Source: Opitutales bacterium (lineage in GTDB: Bacteria > Verrucomicrobiota > Verrucomicrobiia > Opitutales > PNEW01). Taken from it: a stretch of 32,000 nt of DNA. The stretch covers positions 1 through 32,000 of the forward strand of contig CBDCNV010000002.1 of NCBI GenBank assembly GCA_965219535.1, in the 5' to 3' direction. Shown piece by piece: positions 12,039 to 30,627 of this stretch. A program made the translations under genes and the position numbers. How positions within the stretch are numbered: position 1 is the first letter of the stretch; every line of letters begins with the position of its first letter. The notes beneath the pieces were generated by a model. The model was not told the DNA's origin and ran no database searches. It saw nothing but the letters and a program-made list of their open reading frames with translations.

Positions 12039-12039
<1 letters not shown>

Positions 12040-12440
12040 TGGCGAAGCGAAAGCACTCGATCGATAAAGTGAGAGCGTCACGTGACGGCCACGAATACCA
12101 TGAGACGTGGACAGCCCGAAAGGCCATGCAACTCCTATGGCCGGACAGCGACCTTGCCGCAATAGCAGTCGAAGGTCTTTCTCCAACTGATCAAAAACAT
12201 GTTTCTGTACAAACAGTTGAAATCGCGGACATCACTCTCTACTACGGAGGTGGGTCTACCTTTGAGCAAGCCTCGCGGACGAGCATTGCTCAGTTTAAGT
12301 ATTCATTGTCCGACAATGACTTTCGTGCCAGCCATGCCAAGAAAACGATTCAAAAGTTTGCAGAAACCTACCGGGAATACAAGAGGAGATACGGCCCTCA
12401 AGCCGTGCACGATAGACTAGATTTTCAACTCATTACAAAT
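12039..12440 (+). other. Putative nuclease effector domain (aa 1-134) of the giant ORF
   Basis: E45 (12171-12173), D64 (12228-12230) and QFK (12291-12299) in alternating hydrophobic strands, followed by LDFQLITNRP. The order matches a restriction-endonuclease-like fold. This is motif-level evidence only. Confidence 0.55.
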
Positions 12441-15400
12441 CGTCCGATTTATGAGTCGCTACACCGAGCGATAGAAAGCATTGCATGCAGCTTACCGCGA
12501 ACTGGCAAAGTTGAAAAGCAAGCGAGACAGTTTAAGACTGCTACTGGCCTTAATGGGAAACCACTCGCTGCCTTTGCTGCAAAGTGCAAGTTCATCGGTT
12601 TCTCGGGGAGCCTTAGGTCAACCAAGAATGAACTCGCAGGCATGCTTGTTGACTGGTCTGCAACCAGTGACCCTATAGCGGTTGCGCGCCTCGGCCAGTT
12701 AAGAAATTTGGTTCGAGAAAAGGCTGGCTCTGCTAGCACCAATCAGAACCTCATCACCCGCACTGACATCCTTGCGGCGCTGCAAATCGGCGACCCCAAA
12801 AATCTTTTACCATGTGCGCCCGCACTCGCAGATGTAGGAAAAATCGTTGAGCGCGAACAACTCGCCGAAGCAATTGACCTGATTCCGGCCCTCTCGGCAC
12901 CTCTTCTTGTTCATGCGGCTGGCGGGGTAGGTAAAACTGTTTTCATGGGCAGTCTTGCAGAAAAAATAAGTGCCAATTACGAGGTTGTTTTCTTTGATTG
13001 CTTTGGCGGCGGTGCCTATCGCTCGTCCGAGGATGAACGGCATTTACCGAGGAGGGGGCTAATTCACATCGCGAACACGCTTGCAGTTCACGGTTTGTGT
13101 GACCTCATACTACCCAATAGCCCTAGTGTAGGAGAGCTGCTTCGAACTTTCAGACGGCGCCTCATCCAGTGTGTCAAGACTCTTTCCAGAATGGGATCCA
13201 GTCGAGAACTGGTAATATTCATTGATGCCATAGATAACGCGAATATAGCGGCGCTACGATACAATGATGACGCTTTTCCAGTCAAACTGCTAGAGAGCTT
13301 AAGCACCAAACCTGTCCCCGGTGTGAAACTCATTATTTCATGCCGGACGGAACGCAAACCTGAGACTTGCGCGAAGTACGACGAGTTAGAACTGCGCTCT
13401 TTCAGTATGGATGAAACGTCGTCTTTTCTGCGTGCTAGACTGAAAGACATTTCGCAGGCGAAGATCAGTGTTGCTCAGGCGCGCTCAGATGGCAATCCGC
13501 GCGTACTCGAACACCTTCTCACTAGCGGCCGTGGTCTTCTTGACGAGTCAGAGATCGATAAAAAGATTGGGCTGGACGAACTCATCCAAGAGAGGATGAT
13601 AAATGCTCTCGAGACAGCTCTCGAGCGTGGTTCAGAACAAAGCGATATTAATACTTTTCTGGCAGGACTTGCTGTCCTGCCGCCCCCCGTGCCGCTTGAT
13701 GAGTATGCTGTAGCTTGTGGCGTAGAACTTAGCGCAATCCAAAGCTTTGCGTCGGATCTGGCACCACTACTGGAACTTACCAATCACGGATTGATGTTTA
13801 AGGATGAACCTACGGAGACACTAGTTCGCAATCGGTACGCCTCGTCAACGGATGCCCTGCGCCGTGTCGCCAAGAACCTGCTCGTACGCCAGGATGTCTC
13901 TGTTTATGCTGCTCGCGCTATACCGGGCCTCTTGCATGAACTTGATGATGGCGAACGGCTTTTCAAGCTTGCTTTCGATGACCGCATCCCCGCAGCAATA
14001 ACAAGTACGGTTGGCAAAAGACACATACGGTATGCGAGGCTTAAGGCCGCCACCCTACATGCTGCGATTAACCAGAAATACAACCTTATGGTTCAGCTAT
14101 TGGTCGAGTTGTCCACGATCGCCGCAACCGATCAACGCGGGACCGATTACATTCTGGATCATCCCGACCTTGTCGTGGCTGCAAAGGATGTTGATGCCAC
14201 GCGCCGCCTTTTTGAAACACGTACTGGCTGGCCAGGGACGCGTCATGCCAGGTTAACGATAGCCAATACGCTCTCGGGCGAATACGAAGAGGCGAACCGC
14301 CATGCATTAAAAACCATAGAGTGGATCGACCACCTTATACGAATCAATTTCGATGATAAAATGGATGAACCTGGTCCGGAGCGTCCCGATATCGCGGCTA
14401 TACTTTTCTTCCGTATCTCCCAGGGTTGCGAGAAAGAGGCTGCACATTGCCTGAAAGACTGGCAAGACTGGTATGTCTACGAGGTTTTCGAATATGTGTT
14501 CGACTATTCGTGCCTCAAGCAGTCGATACGATCACAGCCACCACGTAGGCTCGAAAGCTTTGTAAGCACACTGGAGGCCATCGGTCCTCTGACAGCAGCC
14601 CTTTCTTTCCAAGAGCTTCCAAGATTAAAAAGCAAAAAACTCATCAGAAGGCTTGCCAAGCTCTGTAAAAAGACGTCTAAACTCGATCTATCGGAATCCT
14701 ATCAACGTGATAAGACATACCGGCTTGAAGACGGATTGCGCAAAGCGGCAGCGGTGGCCTTGTCGCTTGGTCTTGACGACGAAGCACAGGCAATCTCGCT
14801 ACGTGCGCCGCATCAGCGCCCAGCCATATGGTCCTTCCACGACGATTTTTATGTCAGGGATGTGTTCCCATTCGTGTTTCGAACCGCCCTTGTCGCCGCC
14901 GCCAATAAGTCAACACTTCACGAGACGGACGTACTCCCCGAGGATCTGGTTCCAATTTGTTCCCGTATTAGTAAGGATCTGAATGGCAAAGCGTTTCGAG
15001 ACAAGGCAGAGCAACGGCTATCCGAGCACATTCCCGGGGCACGGAATGAAGACGAGTCCACAAAGCGCTCCCACACACTGAGCTACGAGGATAGACGCGT
15101 TGCCGAACGATTTATCACTAATCGTCTGGAGCCATTTCTTTCACTGACGAAAGCGCTCTCAGCCGTTCTCGCAGCGCCTACGCGCAGCATAGATAAAGCT
15201 TTCATAAGATTGCTCAAAATCTGGGAGGACGCGTGCAAAAACCGCAATCGCTACCGAAGCGACGAGATTGACCATTTCTTCAGTGAGCTCGGCTTCGATT
15301 CGGTACTATTCGCCCTCTGGGCACGCAGCGAACTCGAACACGCATCGGTCAAACGTTTCCTTAAAACAGTTCATGGCCAGGATATTAGCGCGCACAACCT

Positions 15401-18400
15401 CGTGCGGATCGTTTCGATCTTAGCAAAGCGACAATCTTTACAGGAACTTGCAGGTGAACAGGCTATAAAAGCTCGCGCGCTCATCGAAGCCGAGAACGAT
15501 GTCACTTACCGGGCATCTCAGTTTGGCGCTCTCGGGCGAGCCATGCTTCCGGCAAGCATTGATGAAGCATCGGTCTATTTTCGCGATGGGCTCGAACAAA
15601 TGGATGCCATTGGGTCCGGCGACGATCTGTTCACCAACGAACTTCTCCTTTTTGCGTCCAAGATAAAAGGGGAGGAACTCGACGAGCGCGACTTTCACAC
15701 CCTGACGAATATTTGTGAACTCAATATGGGTGAGGAGCCAGAGAAGTTTTTCTGGGACGGTTTCGGCCCTGCGCTTTCCAAAGTGGCCGGCCCAAGAGGT
15801 CTGGCAAAACTCAGTCGCTGGGATGACCGCTCTAAGATATCCTTAAGCAATACCTTGCTCCCGTATCTTACGGCACTTGTTGAAGACGGAAAGATCGAAC
15901 CTAAAGACGCGCTGGCTCTCAACCGCCTAGCAATCCCCACTGAATATCTTTACTCTGGCACCAAAGAATTTGCGCAAACGATCCGAAAACAGGCCGGCCC
16001 CGATCCTGGGATTACAACCGAACTCATTCAGCAGTTCGAGGATCATAACCCCGGCATTGCAGACAACAGCACAATTGAGGTGCTCGCCTCATTTGCCGAA
16101 GAAGCTCTAGGATCATCATCAAATACTTCCAATACAGCAGCCTATCTTTCAGCAGCCCGTGTACGATTTTCTACAGTCCTTGAGAGCCGCAACAATCAGA
16201 AAAACTATAGTGAAAGACCAGATGCGCGGTGGCGTAAGAGAGCGGTAGCTATCAATCGCCAGAATCGTGCAGCCGTTGATCGCATTGTTACTTCCACAGA
16301 CCCTACGGATGAGAACTCCCTCCTAAAAGCGATCAATGACTTCAACAGCTTGCAGGATACTTATGATCTGAAGGGTGGCTTCTTCGCTTCACTTCGAGGC
16401 AAGATGCCTTTTGGTGCCCGTGCACAATATGTTCGGGTCATATGCTTGCTAGAGAAATTTTCTTTATCCTGGAAACTTGAAGAGCTAAAAGTGTGTAAAC
16501 AAAGTTGGGGAAATTCATCTGCTTCGCTTGGGCCAGTTTACAAGGATCAAGCCATTCCCCTTATTCAGCTTCATGCTAAGGACATAGTTGATGGCAGTTG
16601 GCTATCACGTTCTCACCTCAAAGAAATAACCGATCTTACAGGCGTTCCTGTCGCTGAACTTGTGCTTGAACTCATCAAAGTCATTGTTCGGCAGGATAGT
16701 TCTGTCACGGGCGCCGTCTGGCTCGCTTGTGCCGCACCTATTTGTTCGCAAGCAGACGATGGGCAAGGTCAACTTGCCCTCAAACGATTGCTTAGCAGCA
16801 ATGCTGCCACACTTGCAGATAACGTTGTGGACGGGATCTGGATGGACGGACGCTATCCAAAGGACGATGTTCCAGCGATCGCTGCCGGGCTCGTTTGGCG
16901 CATGCTTGGTTCCCCCTACGCCGAAAACAGGTGGCGTGCAGCCCACAGTATTCGGTGCTACGCGAGATTCGGATGTTGGGAGACAGTTGATTCCCTGGTC
17001 GACCATCTCAACGAGAAAACGGCAGGGCCTTTCCAGGCCTCCGAACTCACTTTTTACTACCTGCATGCCAGGCTTTGGCTTCTTATTGCGCTCGCGAGGA
17101 CGGCATTAGACCACCCAGAAAAAATCGCGACCTACAAGGATGAACTCCTTACTATTGTTACAGAAGACGCCACCCCGCATGTTCTAATGAGCCACTTTGC
17201 CACGCGCACATTGCTGACCTGTATCGATGCCGGAAAACTCGACTTGGAGGCGGGTGTCACACAGCGCTTGCGAAACGCCGACCTCTCGCCGCATCCAAGC
17301 TCAAAAGAAAAGATCAGAACTGGTGGTAATTTCTATCAGAGGCGTCCGGACTCCACACCCAAACCGAATTTTGAGTTTCATCTTGATATCGATTTTCGTG
17401 ATCACGACGTGTGCAATTTGGGCCGTATCTATGGTAAGTCGGGCTGGTATGTCGCTGACATGATGTCTGCGATCGTTCAGCAGCTTGATCCGAGCGTTTC
17501 CAGCATGTATGAATCAGGTGGTCGAGAGTCCCTTTACAGACAAACAACTCTCAGGATCAGCACGCATTATCACACACACGGTCAGCAGCTTGGTTGGCAT
17601 GCGCTTTTTTTCGCCGCGGGCAAGCTTCTTGCTGAGTTTCCTGTTACAGAAGATTGGTGGAACGAAATCGAGTGGCTTGGGCGCTATACTCTCACCCGAG
17701 ATGATGGATTGTGGCTTTCCGACGGTATAGACAGATCGCCATTTGATACGGCCATAACCCTTCTTGAAATGAAAAAAAGTGATCTTGTGGTCACCGGTGA
17801 CCGAGATAAGATTCTACAACTTGCTGGACTCACGTCTCGCGTCGGCAAAGAGCTAGTTGTCGAGGGGACATGGTTCTCTTCCGACAATATCAGTGTTAAC
17901 ATCTCGTCCGCCTTGGTTCCGCCCACAAAATCAGCAAAGCTCGCGTTGAAGCTTACTCGCGAACACCCATTGAACAACTTGATTCGAGTCTTTCATCAGA
18001 CAGATAAAGATTCAGAATACCTAAGTGGCGAAATGAATGAATTCACCCCCTGGATCGTCTGTCCGTTCGGTGAGGTCCTGCTTGACAAGCACGATCCCTA
18101 CGGTGTGTCTTTCGCTAATCTCAGGCCTTTTATCGCGAGTGATTTTGCCGCCTTTTTTACCATTACCAGTAGTGATCCGTTCCACCGAACCTGGCATGAC
18201 AAGCGCAGTAAACAGGTGATGCGATCACAAGCCTGGGGCTGTGAAAGCATAGACAGTGAAGAGAGGCCACATTCTGGACGGCGCCTTTATTGCACGTCAT
18301 CAATGCTTAAAAAGATACTTGCAAAATACGACAAAGACCTACTACTGCTTATTAAACTGAAACGGTACGAGAAAGAGTCATTTCGTGGGAATGGGAAATT

Positions 18401-18494
18401 TACTCATACCGTGGCAGTTGTCCAGATCACCAAAACGCTCGGCCTTAAATATTTCAAAGGCCGCATTAATTACATTTACAAGTCCCAATATTAA
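12039..18494 (+). CDS. Giant (2151 aa) multidomain protein: N-terminal PD-(D/E)xK (Cap4/DUF4297-like) nuclease, STAND-type P-loop NTPase, long helical-repeat C-terminal region. Candidate Avs-like antiviral STAND protein.
   Basis: Uninterrupted 6456-nt ORF whose ATG overlaps the hsdM stop (TAATG). Motifs: GHEYHE, E45, D64, Q85-x-K87; Walker A GGVGKT (12921-12938); Walker B LVIFIDAID (13209-13235); LIISCRTE; DGNPRVLEHL. Confidence here is for the CDS being real. The functional call is about 0.6. Confidence 0.9.
12891..13538 (+). other. STAND-type NTPase module (aa 285-500) of the giant ORF
   Basis: Walker A AAGGVGKT, Walker B hhhhDAxD, sensor-like R436 in ISCRTE, LELRSFSMDE, GNP(R)VL motif. 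Confidence 0.8.
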
Positions 18495-23099: not shown

Positions 23100-24083
23100 C
23101 TACGGACTCTCCTCCATATCCTCCAGATAATAGCCGGCGCCGATCAGAATCGGCAGTCCAAAGGACACGATCCGCTTGACGAATGCCACCTTGCGCCCCT
23201 CCATTCCACTCGATGGATTGCGCTTCGTGTAATACAGGAAACTCTCTCCGAAGGCGTCCGCTACGCTCACAAGATCCTGGTCTTCGACCGGTCCTACCAA
23301 CTCGGACATTATATCATCCGGCTCGCTGTATGAATCGCCACTGAACAGCGTGTAGCCATAAGTATCGATGGCAAACAAGTAGATTGATCCGTGTTTCCAT
23401 CGCGGGTCCGTGGTTAAAGTGTTGATCGCAAAGTAGCCTTTCATTTCAAGTTCCATCGCAGCGCAATGGACAAACTCCTTTAACCTCTCGTTGGAAGGAT
23501 CACTATCGAGCAACATGGCATTGACCTCTTGACTCCAGCACGTGCCCGGAATGTCGCGCTGGTAGATCCCCGCGCCAATTGCGGCCGGAGTCCCGTTCCA
23601 GTCGATGCTCCTGACGTAGGAAGCCTTCGGCTCCTCCCTGTCCGTCGCTGGATTTGTAATGGAGTAGTAGATCCAGCTCTCCTCGACGATGCTCATGATA
23701 CGATATAGTTCCCTGAAGTAGTCGTTGCCGAAGGAGTCGACAAACAGTCCCCACGGTTTCCCTTCCCTTGAAGGATCGGGCGGGTAGACGATCGCTCGAG
23801 CCATATCGGTCATTGATGTCACTTCGTCGACAAAGACATAAAACTGACCGCTGTTCCAACGCTCGTCTTCGTGAAAAGCCCTGCGTGCCTCACTGAAGCC
23901 CTTTGCACGGGCATACTCGTAGGCGCACTGAACGAACGCCTCTATGTCCTCCGGTGTGCGCACCGCACTGGCTACGATGGAGTGATCAGAGCAAGACACA
24001 GCTTCTTGAGCGCCAAACATCGGCAGCACAGCGAACATGGAGATTAAGGGAATCAGCAATGGATAGAAATGGTGTTTCATCAT
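23100..24083 (-). CDS. Secreted/periplasmic protein with two tandem single-Cache (sCache_2-like) domains, paralog 1
   Basis: 327 aa. Signal peptide MMKHHFYPLLIPLISMFAVLPMFGA. Two repeats of the pattern A..F..D.RW..G..Y.F..D......PPDP...G.....D..G......W.YY...NP......K..Y......IGAG.Y. No TM or output domain. Confidence 0.8.
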   Translation of the reverse strand: MMKHHFYPLLIPLISMFAVLPMFGAQEAVSCSDHSIVASAVRTPEDIEAFVQCAYEYARAKGFSEARRAFHEDERWNSGQFYVFVDEVTSMTDMARAIVYPPDPSREGKPWGLFVDSFGNDYFRELYRIMSIVEESWIYYSITNPATDREEPKASYVRSIDWNGTPAAIGAGIYQRDIPGTCWSQEVNAMLLDSDPSNERLKEFVHCAAMELEMKGYFAINTLTTDPRWKHGSIYLFAIDTYGYTLFSGDSYSEPDDIMSELVGPVEDQDLVSVADAFGESFLYYTKRNPSSGMEGRKVAFVKRIVSFGLPILIGAGYYLEDMEESP

Positions 24084-24284: not shown

Positions 24285-25343
24285 TTACGGACTCTCCTCC
24301 ATGTCCTCCAGATAATAGCCGGCGCCGATCAGAATCGGCAGTCCAAAGGACACCACCCTCTTGACGAATGACACCTTGCGCTCCTCCATCTCACTCGACG
24401 GATTGCGTATCGTGTAATACAGGAAGCTCTCTCCGAAGGCGTCCGCTACGCTCACAAGATCCTGGTCTTCGATCGGTCCTACCAACTCGGACATTATCTC
24501 TCCGAAGGCGTCGGCGTCCTCAACGCTCACAAGATCCTGATCTTCGTCCGTTCCTACCAACTCGGACATTATATCATCCGGCTCGCTGTATGAATCGCCA
24601 CTGAACAGCGTGTAGCCATAAGTATCGATGGCAAACAAGTAGATTGATCCGTGTTTCCATCGCGGGTCCGTTGTCAAAGTGTTGATCGCAAAGTAGCCTT
24701 TCATTTCAAGTTCCATCGCAGCGCAACGGACAAACTCCTTCAACCTCTCGTTGGAAGGATCGTCATCGAGCAACATGGCATTGACCTCTTCACTCCAGCA
24801 CGTGCCCGGGATGTCGCGCTCGTAGATCCCCGCGCCAATCGCGGCCGGAGTCCCGTCCCAGTCGATGCTCTTGAGGTAGGTACTCTTTGGCTCATCCCTG
24901 CCCGTTACCGGGTTTGTAAAGGAGTAGTACATCCACCCGTCCCCGACGCTGCTTATAACACGATGAAATTCTTTATACCAGTCGTTGCCAAAGACGTCGA
25001 TTATCGGTTCTCCCCACGGCACCCCTTCCAGCGAAGGGTCAGGTGGGTAGACGAATGATATGGATGCCTCGGTGGGTACCACTTCGCTAACGAAGAGATA
25101 GATTGGGCCGCTGTTCCAGCGCTCGTCCTCATTAAAAGCCCTGCGTGCCTCACTGAAGCCCTCTTCCTGGACATACTCGTAGGCGCACTGAACGAACGCC
25201 TGTATGTCCTGCCGTGTGCGCACTGCGCTGGCCACGATGGAGTGCTCGGCGCAAGACGGAGGTTCAGCAGCACCGAACATCGGCAGCACAGCGAACGTTG
25301 AGATTAAGAGAATCAGAAATGGACAGAGCTGGTGTTTCATCAT
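24285..25343 (-). CDS. Secreted/periplasmic double-Cache protein, paralog 2 (with a 25-aa internal duplication)
   Basis: 352 aa, same architecture. The 3' half is about 95% identical by eye at nucleotide level to paralog 1. Confidence 0.8.
   Translation of the reverse strand: MMKHQLCPFLILLISTFAVLPMFGAAEPPSCAEHSIVASAVRTRQDIQAFVQCAYEYVQEEGFSEARRAFNEDERWNSGPIYLFVSEVVPTEASISFVYPPDPSLEGVPWGEPIIDVFGNDWYKEFHRVISSVGDGWMYYSFTNPVTGRDEPKSTYLKSIDWDGTPAAIGAGIYERDIPGTCWSEEVNAMLLDDDPSNERLKEFVRCAAMELEMKGYFAINTLTTDPRWKHGSIYLFAIDTYGYTLFSGDSYSEPDDIMSELVGTDEDQDLVSVEDADAFGEIMSELVGPIEDQDLVSVADAFGESFLYYTIRNPSSEMEERKVSFVKRVVSFGLPILIGAGYYLEDMEESP
24429..24572. repeat. Intragenic tandem duplication (69-nt unit + 75-nt unit) in paralog 2
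   Basis: CTCTCCGAAGGCGTC...CTACCAACTCGGACATTAT occurs twice in a row. Paralog 1 has one unit (about 23243-23311). Accounts for the 25-aa length difference. Confidence 0.85.
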
Positions 25344-25446
25344 TAGTATATATTCATTCGGGATTCTTTGCTATTGGAATGGTGGAAAGGTCAAATTGTT
25401 TAGTATTAATCATATTTGTCAATAATCTCAATAAGAGGGTAGTGAC

Positions 25447-26361
25447 TCAGTTTGAAATTCTTTTCTTATAAGGCCCTCTGGGATTTGTTTTTGATTCCGA
25501 ATCCTCGATTAGATCGATAATATCAAAGACATCCCAAAGCCTATGTGTTAATCCCGCTTCCATCGCGGGAGATACACGCAAGGTCTTGTGTAGCCTACAA
25601 AAATTGTAAAATACGGTATAAAGGGAGCATGAATAAAGGTGGTTTTCTAACTTCTTGGAAAAGGCGTTTGTCAGCCGAGTAAAACGCCTCATTGACATTC
25701 TCATGGTGAGGTTGTGACGTTCGACGTGCGAAGTGCTGATTGATTTCTTTTTTGGATTCCCGTTGATGTTGTTTTTTACCGAGCTTTTGAATATCGGCGG
25801 GCTGTATCGCTTAGTCTTATGGTAGTCCTCACCGTAGACCTTTACTAGTTGGGCGTAATCGACATCACCGCCAAATGCTTCTTCTACGGCATCCAGGTAG
25901 ACCCGATAACCATCAGTGGTTAGTTGGACTCGATTTGCAAGGCGTCCTTTCAGATCATGCATAAACTCGTAGGCAGTCGACGCTGTCCGATCACCTATCT
26001 GATAGGAGATGATTAACTTGCTATCGCTGTCTAGGGCTGTCCAAGTCCAAACATCACCAGACCCTTCTGGTGCCGCTTTTGACTGTTTAACATTCTTTTC
26101 CTTTGCATAGCAGAAAGACCATATTTCGTCACATTGGACACGCTGTGCTTTGACATTACGAACTGCCTTGTCGTGGAATTCAACACAAGCCTTACCAGCA
26201 TCAACCAGTAGCTTGGCAACGGTATTAGTTGATACATCAACAGTGCGAGCGATTGCTCTTTGTGACATCCCCTCAACCAGAAGGGAAAGGATCATTGCTT
26301 GTTTCTCTCTTGGCAGCTTATTCATACTGACTAAAATGACATAAATGCCTAGCATAGTCAA
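25447..26361 (-). CDS. IS1-family-like single-ORF transposase (probable start at 26325, MNKLPREKQ...)
   Basis: N-terminal HTH (GMSQRAIARTVDVSTNTVAKLL), DEIWSFCYAKEKN, WTWTALDSDSKLII, TTDGYRVY, HVERHNLTMRMSMRRFTRLTNAFSKK. The motif order is as in IS1-type DDE transposases. Element ends not resolved, though GGTAGTGAC abuts the stop at 25438-25446. Confidence 0.7.
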   Translation of the reverse strand: MTMLGIYVILVSMNKLPREKQAMILSLLVEGMSQRAIARTVDVSTNTVAKLLVDAGKACVEFHDKAVRNVKAQRVQCDEIWSFCYAKEKNVKQSKAAPEGSGDVWTWTALDSDSKLIISYQIGDRTASTAYEFMHDLKGRLANRVQLTTDGYRVYLDAVEEAFGGDVDYAQLVKVYGEDYHKTKRYSPPIFKSSVKNNINGNPKKKSISTSHVERHNLTMRMSMRRFTRLTNAFSKKLENHLYSCSLYTVFYNFCRLHKTLRVSPAMEAGLTHRLWDVFDIIDLIEDSESKTNPRGPYKKRISN

Positions 26362-26378
26362 GTATTATTTTTACTTTA

Positions 26379-27017
26379 TTATGTGTTTTTCCTTTGAGTT
26401 TTATACACTGTATGGTCCTGATCCCACCATAACACGTGAAAGATTGCTCCTTCTCGAACCCCCCAGATACGTTCCTTCTTACCAAAGTTTAATTGATGCA
26501 ATACACCCGCACCTGGGAATTTGGTCTTCTGCAATCGCGCCTTGGCTTTAGTATTTATCTTTGCAATATCCATGGCGTGATTATGAGAACCTTTAAGAAG
26601 CTCACCCCATGACATACCTTCATAATCATGTAATCGATTGATAATTTTAAACAGCAGACAAGCAGTAACTTTTCCCCAACCCCAAGCACCATGACCTGGG
26701 AATTTGGTCTTCTGCAATCGCGCCTTGGCTTTAGTATTTATCTTTGCAATATCCATGGCGTGATTATGAGAACCTTTAAGAAGCTCACCCCATGACATAC
26801 CTTCATAATCATGTAATCGATTGATAATTTTAAACAGCAGACAAGCAGTAACTTTTCCCCAACCCCAAGCACCATGATAATCTATGTCCCTAACGCGCCA
26901 AGTAAACGTACTTTTATTAGCTTCTATACTCTTTTCAGCACCACGTGGTCTCTTGCCATGGCCTGGCTTATGACCTGTTCGGACTAACTTGTCAGCCCGT
27001 TTATTTCTCTTCGGCAC
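26379..27017 (-). CDS. Hypothetical protein, candidate toxin partner of the upstream Panacea-domain gene; contains a 61-aa exact internal duplication
   Basis: 212 aa. Basic N-terminus, ...FTWRVRDIDYHGAWGWGKV..., C-terminal ERIWGVREGAIFHVLWWDQDHTVY. Starts 9 nt after the DUF4065 gene stop. Confidence 0.7.
   Translation of the reverse strand: MPKRNKRADKLVRTGHKPGHGKRPRGAEKSIEANKSTFTWRVRDIDYHGAWGWGKVTACLLFKIINRLHDYEGMSWGELLKGSHNHAMDIAKINTKAKARLQKTKFPGHGAWGWGKVTACLLFKIINRLHDYEGMSWGELLKGSHNHAMDIAKINTKAKARLQKTKFPGAGVLHQLNFGKKERIWGVREGAIFHVLWWDQDHTVYKTQRKNT
26511..26876. repeat. Perfect 2 x 183-bp tandem duplication inside the 26379-27017 CDS
   Basis: 26511-26693 and 26694-26876 are identical base for base by my reading. 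183 = 61 codons, in frame. Confidence 0.95.
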
Positions 27018-27026
27018 TCCAACAAC

Positions 27027-27503
27027 CTAAGATTCCGGCTCTAATCCACTGTAATATTCAAGTATGGCTTCTAAGGTGATTTCTTCTCCACTATGAGCGT
27101 CATTGTGTAAAGTTCCTCGAGCGTCACGCCATGGAGCTTCCATATGGGACAAATCACTCAACCAGACAGAGGTTTTATCACCGTAGTAAGCAAGCACCTC
27201 ATCAATAGTCTCTTTTGCAACCCAATCCAGATTAGAAACTGAACCTCTAATTTTAGAGATAAGCCATTGGCCACGATGCTGCTGATACAATTTCGGCACC
27301 ACTGGGCCATAAGTCCAAGCTTCTATCCGCTCTGAAAACAAAGGCCGTTCATCCCATACCAACGACCAAACCTGTGAATAATACACAAGTTTTTGTAGTT
27401 TTACCGCCGTTATAGGGCCTTTTTTGCTAAGGATGTATTTAGCGACGTCAAAAACACTAGCTTTTGCTATATAGCTTTTCTTGTTGGTTTGTGACATTTT
27501 CAA
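27027..27503 (-). CDS. Panacea / SocA-like (DUF4065) domain protein, putative antitoxin
   Basis: 158 aa. FDVAKYILSKKGPITAVKLQKLVYYSQVWSLVWDERPLFSERIEAWTYGPVVPKLYQ is the canonical DUF4065 core (KLQKLxYY...W.....PLF...IEAW..GPV). Confidence 0.8.
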   Translation of the reverse strand: MKMSQTNKKSYIAKASVFDVAKYILSKKGPITAVKLQKLVYYSQVWSLVWDERPLFSERIEAWTYGPVVPKLYQQHRGQWLISKIRGSVSNLDWVAKETIDEVLAYYGDKTSVWLSDLSHMEAPWRDARGTLHNDAHSGEEITLEAILEYYSGLEPES

Positions 27504-27522
27504 ACCTTTTTATTTATAATGT

Positions 27523-27744
27523 TTATTTTTCCCCCCATCGGGTTATAGCAGCCTTTTGAGCACTTTCTCGACGTTGTTCCTTAGTCAATGACTTAGCACG
27601 AGCGATCCCGCCTGCTTTCCCAGCTTTACGCTTGCCCTCGTCAATACGAGTTTCCTCGATTTCACCCGTTGCGATCTTCATAACCTTGACAGCGCAACCT
27701 GTCACATCTGCCGGACGTTTTTGTCCTTGTGGTCCTACTGGCAT
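27523..27744 (-). CDS. Small basic protein (73 aa), first gene of the Panacea operon
   Basis: KRPADVTGCAVKVMKIATGE...GKAGGIARAKSLTKEQRRESAQKAAITRW. I recall the N-terminal RPADV..NAV.VM.IATGE motif and the C-terminal GG.ARA..L..E.R..IA.KAA..RW motif recurring in small proteins of mobile elements. Only 19 nt from the next gene. Confidence 0.6.
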   Translation of the reverse strand: MPVGPQGQKRPADVTGCAVKVMKIATGEIEETRIDEGKRKAGKAGGIARAKSLTKEQRRESAQKAAITRWGEK

Positions 27745-27917
27745 TTATCTCTCCTTTTTTTGTTCCCTCGGCCGATGTGCAACTCGCCGAGGGAACAAGT
27801 TAATAAACGTATAATAAAATACCATGTCAAGTAGCTATTGCGTAATATTTTTAATATGTTAGAACCTCTAATTGTATAATTTTTATCTTTTTAAAAGAAT
27901 ATAACAAAGGGAAAATT

Positions 27918-28103
27918 ATGTGGGAAACAATTGAAGCTATTAGCGTAACTATAGGGGGGACTTTATTAGCTCTATCTTTTTTATTTAGAGAGCTTAGTCT
28001 GGGAATTCCATACAAAAGATATATCATGTACTTGATATGGGGAATTCTGGGCTGGGGGCTTCTTCTTTTTTTCCTTTTATATCATTACGTTTCGGTTTCA
28101 TAA
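27918..28103 (+). CDS. Possible small two-TM membrane protein (61 aa)
   Basis: Two hydrophobic stretches, with AAGGGA 8 nt upstream of the ATG. AT-rich region, overlapped by an equally plausible antisense ORF, so weak. Confidence 0.25.
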   Translation: MWETIEAISVTIGGTLLALSFLFRELSLGIPYKRYIMYLIWGILGWGLLLFFLLYHYVSVS

Positions 28104-28266
28104 GCTTATTCCAAAAAGAAGTATCTCTAATTAAGAATGCAACCCCAAGGATAAGCATTATTTTCATAAAGACGATAACAGCCCTCGGGAAAGGCCAATC
28201 TGTTATATCCCCCTTGACCAATTTGGCCTCAAGGCCAAATAACAATACAAGGTGACCTGCTCCCGT

Positions 28267-29133
28267 TTACTGTACCAGAGCAAGTGTTAGTTCCGGCAGG
28301 GTGGTATGGGTTTTAACTTTCTTAGACATGGCTCTCTGGGCGTATTCGGCCGGAGGCCGATAGCCCAGAGAACTGTGTGGTCTTTGAGTATTATAATCAA
28401 GCCGCCAGGCTTCAAGTTTTTCTTTCGCTTCAGCGAGCGTACAAAATAGCTCGGTGTTAAGAAGTTCATCTCGTAAGCGTCCATTGAAGCTCTCAATATA
28501 ACCATTCTCTACGGGTTTACCTGGCCGGATAAAATCCAGCTTGATGCCATGGCCATAAGCCCATTCATCCAGTACTTTGCCGGAAAACTCGGGCCCATTA
28601 TCGACGGTAATGGTTTGGGGAAGACCGATTCCTGCAGCGGCTTTCATAAGTGCTGCAGCGACTTTGTGCCCACCGATGGACGTATCGACCAAAAGCAGTG
28701 GGCAAGCTCGGGTGTATTGATCGACAACGGTGAGTATGCGGAAGGGGCGGCCGTTGGTCAGCCGATCGCTCATAAAGTCCATCGACCAGCGCTCCTGGGC
28801 TGCTGAAGCCGCGGGCAGTGAGACCCGTCTTTGCGCGGCACGCTTCTTTCGTTTCTTCGTGCGCACTTCCAGCCCTTCGGCCTTGTAGATACGATAAACG
28901 CGTTTCTTTCCTACCGTCCAGCCTTCCCGCTTTAATAACACCGTGATTCGCCGATACCCGTAGCGCACGCGCGCTGCGGCGAGGTCACGGATGCGCATGA
29001 TCAGCGCACGTTCGTCCTTCTTCACCGGCTGGTAGTTATAACTCGACCAATACAACTTCATCAGCCTGCACGCGCGGCGTTTGCTCACCTCATAAGCTTC
29101 CACTAACCAGTCAGCAATCACCTTCTTGCGCAC
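28267..29133 (-). CDS. IS-B1 orfB, DDE (rve) transposase
   Basis: 288 aa. [41 protein letters not shown]. Confidence 0.9.
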
Positions 29134-29138
29134 AGGCT

Positions 29139-29411
29139 TTATAATTTTTTTGCGATTACTTCCTGCAGCATGTGCTTGTCCAGGCTCAGATCAGCTACCA
29201 GCTTCTTCAAACTGGCGTTCTCTTCATCGAGTTGCTTCAGCCGTCTTAATTCGCTCATTCCCATGCCCGCGTATTTACCCTTCCATCGGTGGTAGGTCTG
29301 TTCGCTCACGCCTAACTCTCGGCACACTTCGGCGATCCTTCGACCGCCTTCTACCTGCCTTAGGGCATAGATGATTTGTTCTTTATTATATCGTTTTCCT
29401 TTATTTTTCAT
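29139..29411 (-). CDS. IS-B1 orfA, HTH transposase subunit
   Basis: 90 aa. [22 protein letters not shown] plus a leucine-zipper-like tail. Confidence 0.9.
29145..29151 (-). promoter_or_regulatory. A7 slippery run (putative programmed -1 frameshift site) of IS-B1
   Basis: T7 on the plus strand, at the end of orfA and overlapping the orfB frame. Confidence 0.55.
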
Positions 29412-29497
29412 GGGTGGTTCTTTCTCCTATTTTTTATTAGGTTTTCCACCCATGCCAGACTAAATCTTTGCTGGTCCAGTTTTACGGGGACAGGTCA

Positions 29498-30627
29498 GGT
29501 GGTATGGGTTTTAATTTGCTTAGATATGGCTCTTTTGGCGTATTCGGCTGAAGGCCGATAGCCCAGAGAGCTATGTGATTCTTGAGTATTATAATCAAGT
29601 CTCCAAGCTTCAAGTTTTTCTTTCGCTTCAGTCAGCTTATAAAATAGCGCCGTGTTAAGAAGTTCATCGCGTAAGCGTCCATTGAAACTCTCAATATAAC
29701 TATTCTCTACGGGTTTGCCTGGGCGAATAAAATCCAGCTTGAGGCCATGGCCATAAGCTCACTGATCCAGTACTTTGCCGACAAACTCGGGCCCATTATC
29801 GACGGTAATGGTTTGGGGAAGACCGATTCCTGCGGCGGTTTTGTGCCCACCGATGGACGTATCGACCAGAAGCAGTGGGCAAGCTCGAGTGTATTGATCG
29901 ACAATGATGAGAATGTGGACGGGGCGGTCATTGGTCAACCGATCGCTAATAAAGTCCATCGACCAGCGCTCCTGTGCAACTGAAGCCGCGGGCAGTGAGA
30001 CCCGCCTTTGCGTGGCACGCTTCTTTCGTTTCTTCCCTACTGACCAGCCTTCCCGCTATAATAACACCGTGATCCACCTATACCCGTAGCGTACACGGAC
30101 GGCGGCGAGGTTACGTATGCACGCTCGTCCTTCTTCACCAGCTGATAGTTATAACTCGACAAACACATCTGCATTAGCCTGAACACCCGGCAGTTGCTCA
30201 CCTCATAAGTTTCCACTAGCCGGTCAGCAATCACCTTCTTGCGTACAGGCTTTACCATTTCTTTGCGATAACTTCCTGTAGCATGGGCTTGTCCAAGCTT
30301 AGGTCAGCTACCAGCTTCTTCAAACTCGCGTTCTCTTCGTCGAGTTGCTTCAGCCGTCTTAATTCACTGATTCCCAGGCCCGCATATTTACCCTTCCAAC
30401 GGTGGTAGGTTTGTTCGCTTATCCCTAACTCTCGACACACTTCGACTGCCATCTACCTGCCTTGGGCCATTGATGATTTGTTCTTTATTATATCGTTTGT
30501 CAGGCCTTCTCGGCTATACCTCGTGAACCTTTGCTTTTCATGTGTGGTTCTTTCACCTATCATATATTAGGTTTTTCACCCATGCCAGATTAAATCTTTG
30601 CTGGTCCAGTTTTTCGGGGACAGGTCA
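29498..30627 (-). pseudogene. Degenerate second copy 'IS-B2' of the same IS, abutting IS-B1; lacks its orfB-side terminal repeat
   Basis: Collinear with IS-B1 from GGTGGTATGGGTTTTAA onward. There are several deletions, TGG>TGA at the LDEW position, a destroyed slippery run (AAAGAAA) and a 28-nt insertion in orfA. Its orfA-side end ...GGGGACAGGTCA is at 30627. Confidence 0.8.
30500..30527 (-). repeat. 28-nt mini-insertion (plus strand TCAGGCCTTCTC-GGCTATAC-CTCGTGAA) in IS-B2 orfA
   Basis: Absent from the otherwise collinear IS-B1 (29391-29415). Deleting it restores [14 protein letters not shown], compared with [14 protein letters not shown] in IS-B1. Confidence 0.85.

Follow-up and report, generated by a model that had tools for sequence, protein, structure and literature searches.

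In this study, a window of 32,000 nucleotides (nt) from an Opitutales bacterium (positions 1 to 32,000 of the forward strand of contig CBDCNV010000002.1, assembly GCA_965219535.1) was analyzed, with the operon at 26379–27744 as its subject. An original prediction from the sequence had described this operon as a Panacea (DUF4065) antitoxin gene, a toxin gene of a possibly undescribed family, and a small gene for a basic protein. The open reading frame (ORF) listing confirmed three genes on the minus strand, at 27744–27523 (73 amino acids, aa), 27503–27027 (158 aa), and 27017–26379 (212 aa), together with the motifs quoted for their products. The second and third genes are called PanA and PanT here. 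A transposase gene of the IS1 family lies beyond them on the same strand (25447–26361). The results suggested that the locus is likely a PanA–PanT toxin–antitoxin (TA) module carried as cargo by an IS1-family transporter insertion sequence (IS).

The small gene (27523–27744, minus strand) has an ATG start and a strong AGGAG ribosome-binding site. The PanA gene (27027–27497, minus strand) encodes 156 aa from ATG and 158 aa if TTG at 27503 is used. Gene callers on two independent contigs placed the start at ATG 27497, which is probably the true one. The first gap is then 25 nt and not the 19 nt given earlier; the second gap, 9 nt from the PanA stop to the PanT start, was as described. The PanA TAG and the PanT GTG are in the same reading frame, with GTT GTT GGA between them (window 27027–27017). 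Stop-codon readthrough would therefore yield a PanA–PanT fusion, and the spacing suggests termination–reinitiation coupling. The PanT gene (26379–27017, minus strand) starts with GTG and encodes 212 aa as assembled and 151 aa without an internal duplication.

The transposase gene (25447–26361, minus strand) encodes 304 aa from TTG, with an N-terminal helix-turn-helix (HTH), and matched PF03400 (DDE_Tnp_IS1) with 36.7 bits against a cut-off of 24.1. Its homologues aligned from residue 12, so the likely start is ATG 26325 (292 aa). The domain search also confirmed that both transposase genes said to flank the operon, one IS1-like and one of the IS3 family, are real.

PanA and the PanT family

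PanA matched the Panacea domain of Pfam (PF13274, SocA_Panacea) at residues 36–125 with E = 3.4e-16 and 60.6 bits, far above the cut-off of 25.7, which bore out the DUF4065/Panacea core read in the 158-aa protein. It also matched phrog_1281 with E = 8e-35. Judged by these matches, PanA is a standalone Panacea (DUF4065/SocA-like) protein that carries the Panacea domain only.

There is no Pfam family for PanT. A word-indexed protein search with PanT returned only the protein of the window and its de-duplicated twin, and tblastn returned one unannotated phage record and one Rhizobium plasmid "hypothetical protein". Exhaustive phmmer searching (HMMER, 1.84 billion representatives covered) found 1,423 homologues at E < 1e-3 and 437 at E < 1e-10, nearly all of 140–165 aa. 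The family alignment was made of 104 homologues, and a 29-sequence subset was used for the related-locus search. In the 104-sequence alignment, the N-terminus is variable and rich in lysine and arginine. The conserved parts are an element W40...D46...G-x-W-G-W and a C-terminal signature R122-x-W-G-(I/V)-R...L-W-W-D-P-x-H141-x-V-(Y/C)-P. R122, W136, and H141 never vary, H86 occurs in 86% of the sequences, and PanT of the window retains all of them.

The gene neighborhood of the homologues was surveyed, as had been proposed. Scanning species-representative genomes with the motif LWWDP[ED]H gave 243 confirmed loci, of which 80 were retained. A PanA gene lay directly upstream on the same strand at 80 of the 84 informative independent loci, where the PanT homologues had 26–42% identity, and the gaps were mostly −20 to +20 nt. 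Adjacency was counted by a pipeline of ORFs and hidden Markov models (HMMs), with six cases of over-extended ORFs settled by hand; one locus at a contig edge was left out of the 84 as uninformative. The exceptions were one locus with PanA on the opposite strand and three loci without a PanA ORF. Gene-table look-ups agreed: the Panacea gene was immediately upstream in 6/6 homologues at 27–42% identity. The 212-aa protein is thus supported as a PanT-type partner, in a pairing with DUF4065 that is conserved well outside the locus of the window. The phyla are many, among them Proteobacteria, Thermodesulfobacteriota, Acidobacteriota, Planctomycetota, Chlamydiota, Cyanobacteria, Bacillota, and Verrucomicrobiota. 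Two loci with a split or truncated toxin gene were seen in passing. At one (L036, 3935–4387), the toxin gene is broken into two ORFs downstream of an intact PanA and is an apparent toxin pseudogene; at the other (L008), the toxin ORF is truncated and PanA was not detected.

Kurata et al. (2022, PNAS; PMC8832971) reported 1,268 predicted PanAT pairs with 88 toxin clusters. Cluster T1 is listed first in their table, includes many phyla with Mollicutes among them, and is annotated "hypothetical protein". The single row for Desulfovibrio alcoholivorans DSM 5433 in their Dataset S1 gives PanA WP_029461273, PanT WP_029461272, cluster T1, order A|T, and gap −1. The locus of this strain found here (L027; the species is now Solidesulfovibrio alcoholivorans) has PanA and then a PanT homologue with a gap of −1, and its toxin is 31% identical to PanT of the window (E = 1e-22). 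Since this locus matches the T1 row and T1 was already catalogued, PanT can be assigned to T1, and the claim of a possibly undescribed toxin family fails. A closely similar PanA was found upstream of each T1 homologue checked. The text of the NetFlax 2023 supplement contains neither T1 accession. One T1 member, Clostridium cadaveris WP_074844970, had been assayed: its expression was toxic to E. coli, and an mRNase activity was predicted for it (PMC8832971).

The PanT gene of the window contains a perfect tandem duplication of 2 × 183 nt (26511–26876, minus strand). The copies at 26511–26693 and 26694–26876 are 100% identical and in frame, so that residues 48–108, which take in the main helix and H86, are doubled. 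With one copy removed, the underlying protein is 151 aa. Exactly this protein (P0002) is encoded on two contigs of other sequencing runs (L001 and L002), which are 100% identical to the window except for the missing copy and jointly reach the flanking IS1-like and IS3 sequences. The duplication in the window therefore either arose very recently as a strain polymorphism or was introduced by an error of assembly. Since the register of a tandem duplication is not fixed, it equals a 61-residue insertion anywhere in the segment, including just after the WGW motif. A T1 family member of 216 aa (P0075) has a natural 63-residue acidic insertion of unrelated sequence right after WGW, within eight residues of the site where the duplication adds 61. 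Extra sequence at this WGW-proximal position may therefore be tolerated.

It is rather unlikely, though well worth considering, that the duplication is an assembly artefact and that the real gene is the ordinary 151-aa allele. The perfect identity of the two copies points that way, as do two independent short-read assemblies that lack the duplication and have flanks 100% identical to the window. However, perfect tandem repeats can collapse in short-read graph assemblies, the duplication is exactly in frame, and the 216-aa family member has additional sequence near the same site.

Structure prediction, which had been proposed for the 151-aa version of PanT, was carried out with AlphaFold2. From the single sequence the model was useless, with a predicted local distance difference test (pLDDT) of 37. 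With the 104-sequence alignment a confident model was obtained (pLDDT 89.4; predicted template modelling score, pTM, 0.77). In this model, residues 1–26 are disordered; helices are predicted at 58–71 and 95–102; and strands at 86–89, 111–116, 122–128, and 131–138. About 36 of the top 50 Foldseek matches in the PDB were toxins of the RelE/ParE superfamily (YoeB, HigB, YafQ, RelE, and ParE), with template modelling (TM) scores of 0.45–0.59 normalised by target, so RelE/ParE-like neighbors dominated. Comparison with a viral library gave a similarly weak picture. A PDB sequence search with PanT gave no match, and a PDB search with the family profile gave one chance match, to an acyl carrier protein (E = 0.1).

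The PADLOC model of NsnC was matched over positions 204–280 of 284, its C-terminal part, by 68 of the 104 family members, with a best E of 3.8e-8. With PanT of the window alone the match was weak (E 5.9e-5). The effector domain of Menshen NsnC is PB-BECR1, one of the BECR RNases, for which an H-R-H triad was proposed (Li et al. 2025, NAR; PMC12065111). Panacea is not mentioned in a 2026 preprint on BECR classification. The predicted fold and the profile matches indicate that PanT is probably a RelE-like (BECR) RNase, which is its most likely activity, and the conserved residues suggest H86, R122, and H141 as the catalytic set.

Several points weigh against reading PanT as a T1 RNase toxin that is neutralized by PanA. 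No Foldseek match of the model in the PDB was significant (best E 0.5; probabilities ≤0.54). Comparison of the family profile by hhalign with single YafQ and YoeB sequences gave probabilities below 1% and was uninformative. The evidence for an RNase is therefore weak, with no significant fold match and empty YafQ and YoeB comparisons, but concordant. The candidate catalytic set was chosen by conservation, and the equivalence with T1 was deduced from genome, gene order, and gap. The C. cadaveris T1 toxin was not neutralized by its own PanA (PMC8832971), and PanA is accordingly called a putative antitoxin of PanT here. In the window, the duplication may also inactivate the toxin.

A role other than that of a classical TA toxin is improbable for the T1 protein. 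It would then not arrest growth in its native host; it could instead bind RNA or ribosomes as a non-toxic partner of PanA, or act as a phage-triggered defence effector. The failed neutralization of the single T1 member tested is consistent with such a role, and 8 of 25 PanTs tested were non-toxic in E. coli (PMC8832971). A sensor role for Panacea is favoured by the NetFlax authors, and PanT has its closest profile match in the antiphage system Menshen, in the effector domain of NsnC. Nevertheless, the T1 member tested was toxic; R122 and H141, which are invariant, and the nearly invariant H86 speak for a catalytic function; and type II TA systems typically show such strict pairing, with the antitoxin gene first and very short gaps. 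The reading of PanT as a toxin paired with PanA is preferred.

The small gene and the IS1-family element

The 73-aa protein has 106 relatives, with 52–86% identity among the 48 aligned and the invariant blocks MPxGPxGxKRP and IATGE. Some of the relatives are named "histone H1" by NCBI. Pfam has no family for the protein, and a PDB profile search with it gave chance matches only. Its homologues recur in one layout, in which the small gene, one or two variable genes, and an IS1-type transposase gene lie on one strand. The window repeats this layout, with the transposase at 26361–25447. The small gene was found with at least five unrelated types of cargo, and also with none in derivatives of 735–820 bp. 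No homologue of the small protein was found at the other 85 T1 loci (0/85). This absence and the varied cargo elsewhere speak against the small gene as a third component of the TA system. From the layout of its relatives, it is read as the first gene inside the left inverted repeat of an IS1-family element. Its product is probably a DNA-binding protein with a function for the element, such as regulation of the left-end promoter.

It had been proposed that the small protein may be a third component or regulator. A tripartite system, made up of a toxin of an undescribed family, PanA, and the 73-aa protein as a dedicated third component or regulator, is very improbable in the light of these results. 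The close spacing of the three genes on one strand would fit it, and three-gene architectures are allowed, with accessory genes in a minority of PanAT loci (Kurata et al. 2022, PMC8832971). In some relatives, the small gene also overlaps the first cargo gene or lies directly against it and so may influence cargo expression. On the other side stand its absence from the other 85 T1 loci, its occurrence with unrelated cargo or none, and a toxin family that was already catalogued as T1. The small gene is thus better placed with the IS1-family element.

Three miniature elements of 735–820 bp were observed (L123, 4673–5491; L128, 4854–5629; and L148, 2454–3188), with both inverted repeats and 8-bp target duplications. 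They hold the small gene alone, without an intact transposase gene; a 60-aa transposase-like fragment is kept in L128. Even copies that are non-autonomous thus retain the small gene.

A total of 60 distinct small-gene loci were examined, 54 from IMG/VR together with those from the look-ups. Alignment of the ends gave a 21-nt terminal inverted repeat, GGTAGTGNNTCAGTTTGAAAT, with one copy upstream of the small gene and the other overlapping the transposase stop codon. Among the 60 loci, the left repeat was present at 48, both repeats at 26, and the transposase at 30. Direct repeats of 8 bp (≥7/8 identical) stood immediately outside the repeats in 21 of the 26 complete copies, which were 735–4,212 bp long. 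Control DNA of 601 kb contained no inverted-repeat-like site. The target duplications around complete copies indicate that the units transpose as a whole.

In the window, the right terminal inverted repeat (IRR), GGTAGTGACTCAGTTTGAAAT read inward, is intact at 25438–25458 on the plus strand, with 0 mismatches and 0 chance matches expected. This 21-mer also bounds related elements, and the transposase stop codon is inside it. Ends of the IS1 family read GGnnnTG, and the right end in the window begins with GGTAGTG. Just outside the IRR, at 25430–25437 (minus strand), is a candidate 8-bp target-site sequence, CTCTTATT; relatives have their 8-bp duplications at the same position.

The relative L088 is an intact element of 2,529 bp with the target duplication AACTATTT. 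The window shares 84–91% nucleotide identity with L088 in the leader and small gene, and 93% nucleotide and 99% amino-acid identity in the transposase region. The cargo of the two is unrelated: homology ends 15 nt past the small-gene stop (window 27508) and resumes at the toxin stop (window 26380). Elsewhere, the commonest cargo is a protein of about 200 aa with an XRE-HTH/Peptidase_M78 protein. Other cargo includes DUF5678 with a retropepsin-like protease; PanA with a 154-aa membrane protein; a ClpP/SDH-like protease; and several proteins without a family match. This pattern of homology indicates that the PanA–PanT pair is exchangeable cargo of the IS1-family element. The IS1-like transposase had been taken as a neighbor that fits accessory status; it is present, but it appears to share the mobile unit of the operon and not to be a mere neighbor. 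An independent IS that merely sits beside the operon is hardly credible: the window has a single inverted repeat, and an IS of minimal size might in principle have its end immediately before the transposase gene, but no inverted copy of the end sequence lies between toxin and transposase, the left repeat of relatives is upstream of the small gene with 8-bp duplications flanking the whole unit, and the small gene and transposase co-occur in 30 of the 60 loci with varied cargo between them.

More tentatively, the small gene and the single-ORF IS1-type transposase could define a widespread and possibly undescribed transporter IS family, a proposal to which we give slightly less than even weight. 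Such a family would have a dedicated cargo slot between these two genes for interchangeable two-gene modules of TA-like or defence-like type, with the breaks in homology at the slot's borders, and its cargo would be transcribed with the transposase from the left-end promoter. No description of this arrangement in the IS1 family was found in the searchable literature (ISfinder was outside the search). If the proposal is true, the cargo-slot element couples addiction or defence to its own expression, and elements of IS size gain a route to shuttle and shuffle TA modules.

Two observations in the window speak against a complete mobile unit with its own promoter. No left inverted repeat was found in the 32 kb at up to 4 mismatches, so the membership of this copy in a mobile unit is deduced from its homology to L088. 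In a consensus promoter scan of the minus strand upstream of the small gene, no candidate passed. A second copy of CTCTTATT was also not found in the window.

The homology to L088 starts at 27831, at TTGACA. Two IS3-family copies, at 28253–29497 and 29498–30627, stand head to tail with about 89% identity, and the second is truncated at the junction. The first IS3 copy probably replaced the left end of the IS1-like element. With no recognisable left repeat and an abutting IS3 copy, the element in the window is probably immobile, a decayed and truncated derivative whose left end was lost. Neither the 421 nt from the leader to the IS3 end (27832–28252) nor the 1.4 kb past the IS3 copies had a match among the fetched loci. 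The stretch 27832–28252 is AT-rich, with small hydrophobic ORFs on both strands, such as 27918–28103 on the plus strand (61 aa). In L088, the corresponding place inside the left repeat is occupied by a different AT-rich sequence, about 470 nt long, which also contains hydrophobic ORFs.

The conserved leader with the putative promoter region (27745–27831, minus strand; TTGACA at 27830–27825) extends to the left limit of the homology to L088. It contains a GC-rich hairpin, GTTCCCTCGGC...GCCGAGGGAAC, at 27762–27796 (minus strand), which is perfect, 35 nt long, and unique in the window. Its stem is 11–12 bp, it folds together with its flanks at dG −28 kcal/mol (z = −5.2), and it ends 10 nt upstream of the ribosome-binding site of the small gene. 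In comparison with L088, whose leader is otherwise nearly identical, the hairpin is an insertion; it could act as an attenuator, stabiliser, or operator. An intrinsic terminator was rejected, since an A-run and not a U-run follows on the coding strand.

Taken together, the order within this kind of element is left inverted repeat, small gene, cargo slot, transposase, and right inverted repeat. The four genes are on one strand with short gaps and are probably co-transcribed from the left-end promoter, so that the pair would serve the element as a module of addiction or defence. In the proposed mechanism, PanA (156 aa) would bind and neutralize PanT, and PanT would cleave RNA and arrest translation once PanA is lost or inactivated.

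Neighboring genes of the window

About 8 kb from the PanAT element, a gene at 12039–18494 encodes a 2,151-aa protein with NACHT/AAA_16 NTPase matches. It is possibly a defence protein of the bacterial NLR-like or Avs type and, as such, a hint that the region is a defence or accessory island. Two tandem paralogous proteins with signal-peptide-like N-termini and Cache domains are encoded at 23100–24083 and 24285–25343. Only the second of the two contains an internal repeat, about 25 residues long (IMSELVG..DQDLVSV.DAFGE). This repeat is another recent in-frame duplication near the PanAT locus.

Comparison with known systems

The TA pair itself is ordinary, and the cargo-slot transposon is the more interesting part of the locus. 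The result on the toxin is mostly corrective, since the toxin supposed to be novel belongs to T1, the predicted PanT cluster that is listed first. As in T1 (PMC8832971), a standalone Panacea antitoxin without an N-terminal domain is encoded first, and next, at a distance of a few nucleotides at most, a toxin of about 150 aa. The copy in the window differs from T1 in its 61-residue in-frame duplication, in its location inside an IS1-family element, and in having WWDQDH where WWDP[ED]H is usual. PanT of the window scored 25.3 bits against NCBIfam NF046006 (MAG6450 family; cut-off 40), with only the C-terminal 44 residues aligned. The C-terminal half of NF046006 was matched by 100 of the 104 family members, all under the curated cut-off. 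The PanT family is thus a relative of the MAG6450 family and not a member; Mollicutes also occur within T1.

Like the ribosome-dependent mRNases RelE, YafQ, YoeB, and HigB, PanT has a predicted compact alpha/beta core of helix and antiparallel sheet, and toxins of the RelE/ParE superfamily are its top structural neighbors. In contrast to the RelE family, PanT has no significant sequence or fold score to any solved structure. Additional features of PanT are a conserved element in the N-terminal part (W40, D46, GxWGW) and a disordered basic tail, and its partner is Panacea and not an antitoxin of the RelB/YefM/DinJ type. The His-Arg-His set of PanT parallels the H-R-H triad proposed for PB-BECR1 of Menshen NsnC. 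The candidate set H86/R122/H141 and the link to NsnC give a concrete hypothesis open to mutagenesis.

Transporter insertion sequences (tIS) and TA passengers of Tn3-family transposons are established concepts (PMC9330008). The arrangement described here resembles them in that a transposase and passenger genes lie between one pair of inverted repeats, and in that the passenger is a TA pair whose transcription likely starts at a promoter of the element. An element of the IS1 family that moves interchangeable TA-like cassettes would be a simple vehicle for partner swapping among PanAT and TA systems and for their patchy distribution. It also calls for caution, as a conserved small ORF beside such pairs would be a gene of the element and not a TA component. 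The arrangement differs from the tIS and Tn3 passengers in three respects: the element is of the IS1 family, with ends GGTAGTG and 8-bp duplications; a conserved small gene annotated "histone H1" stands at its left end; and the two-gene content of the slot varies between near-identical elements.

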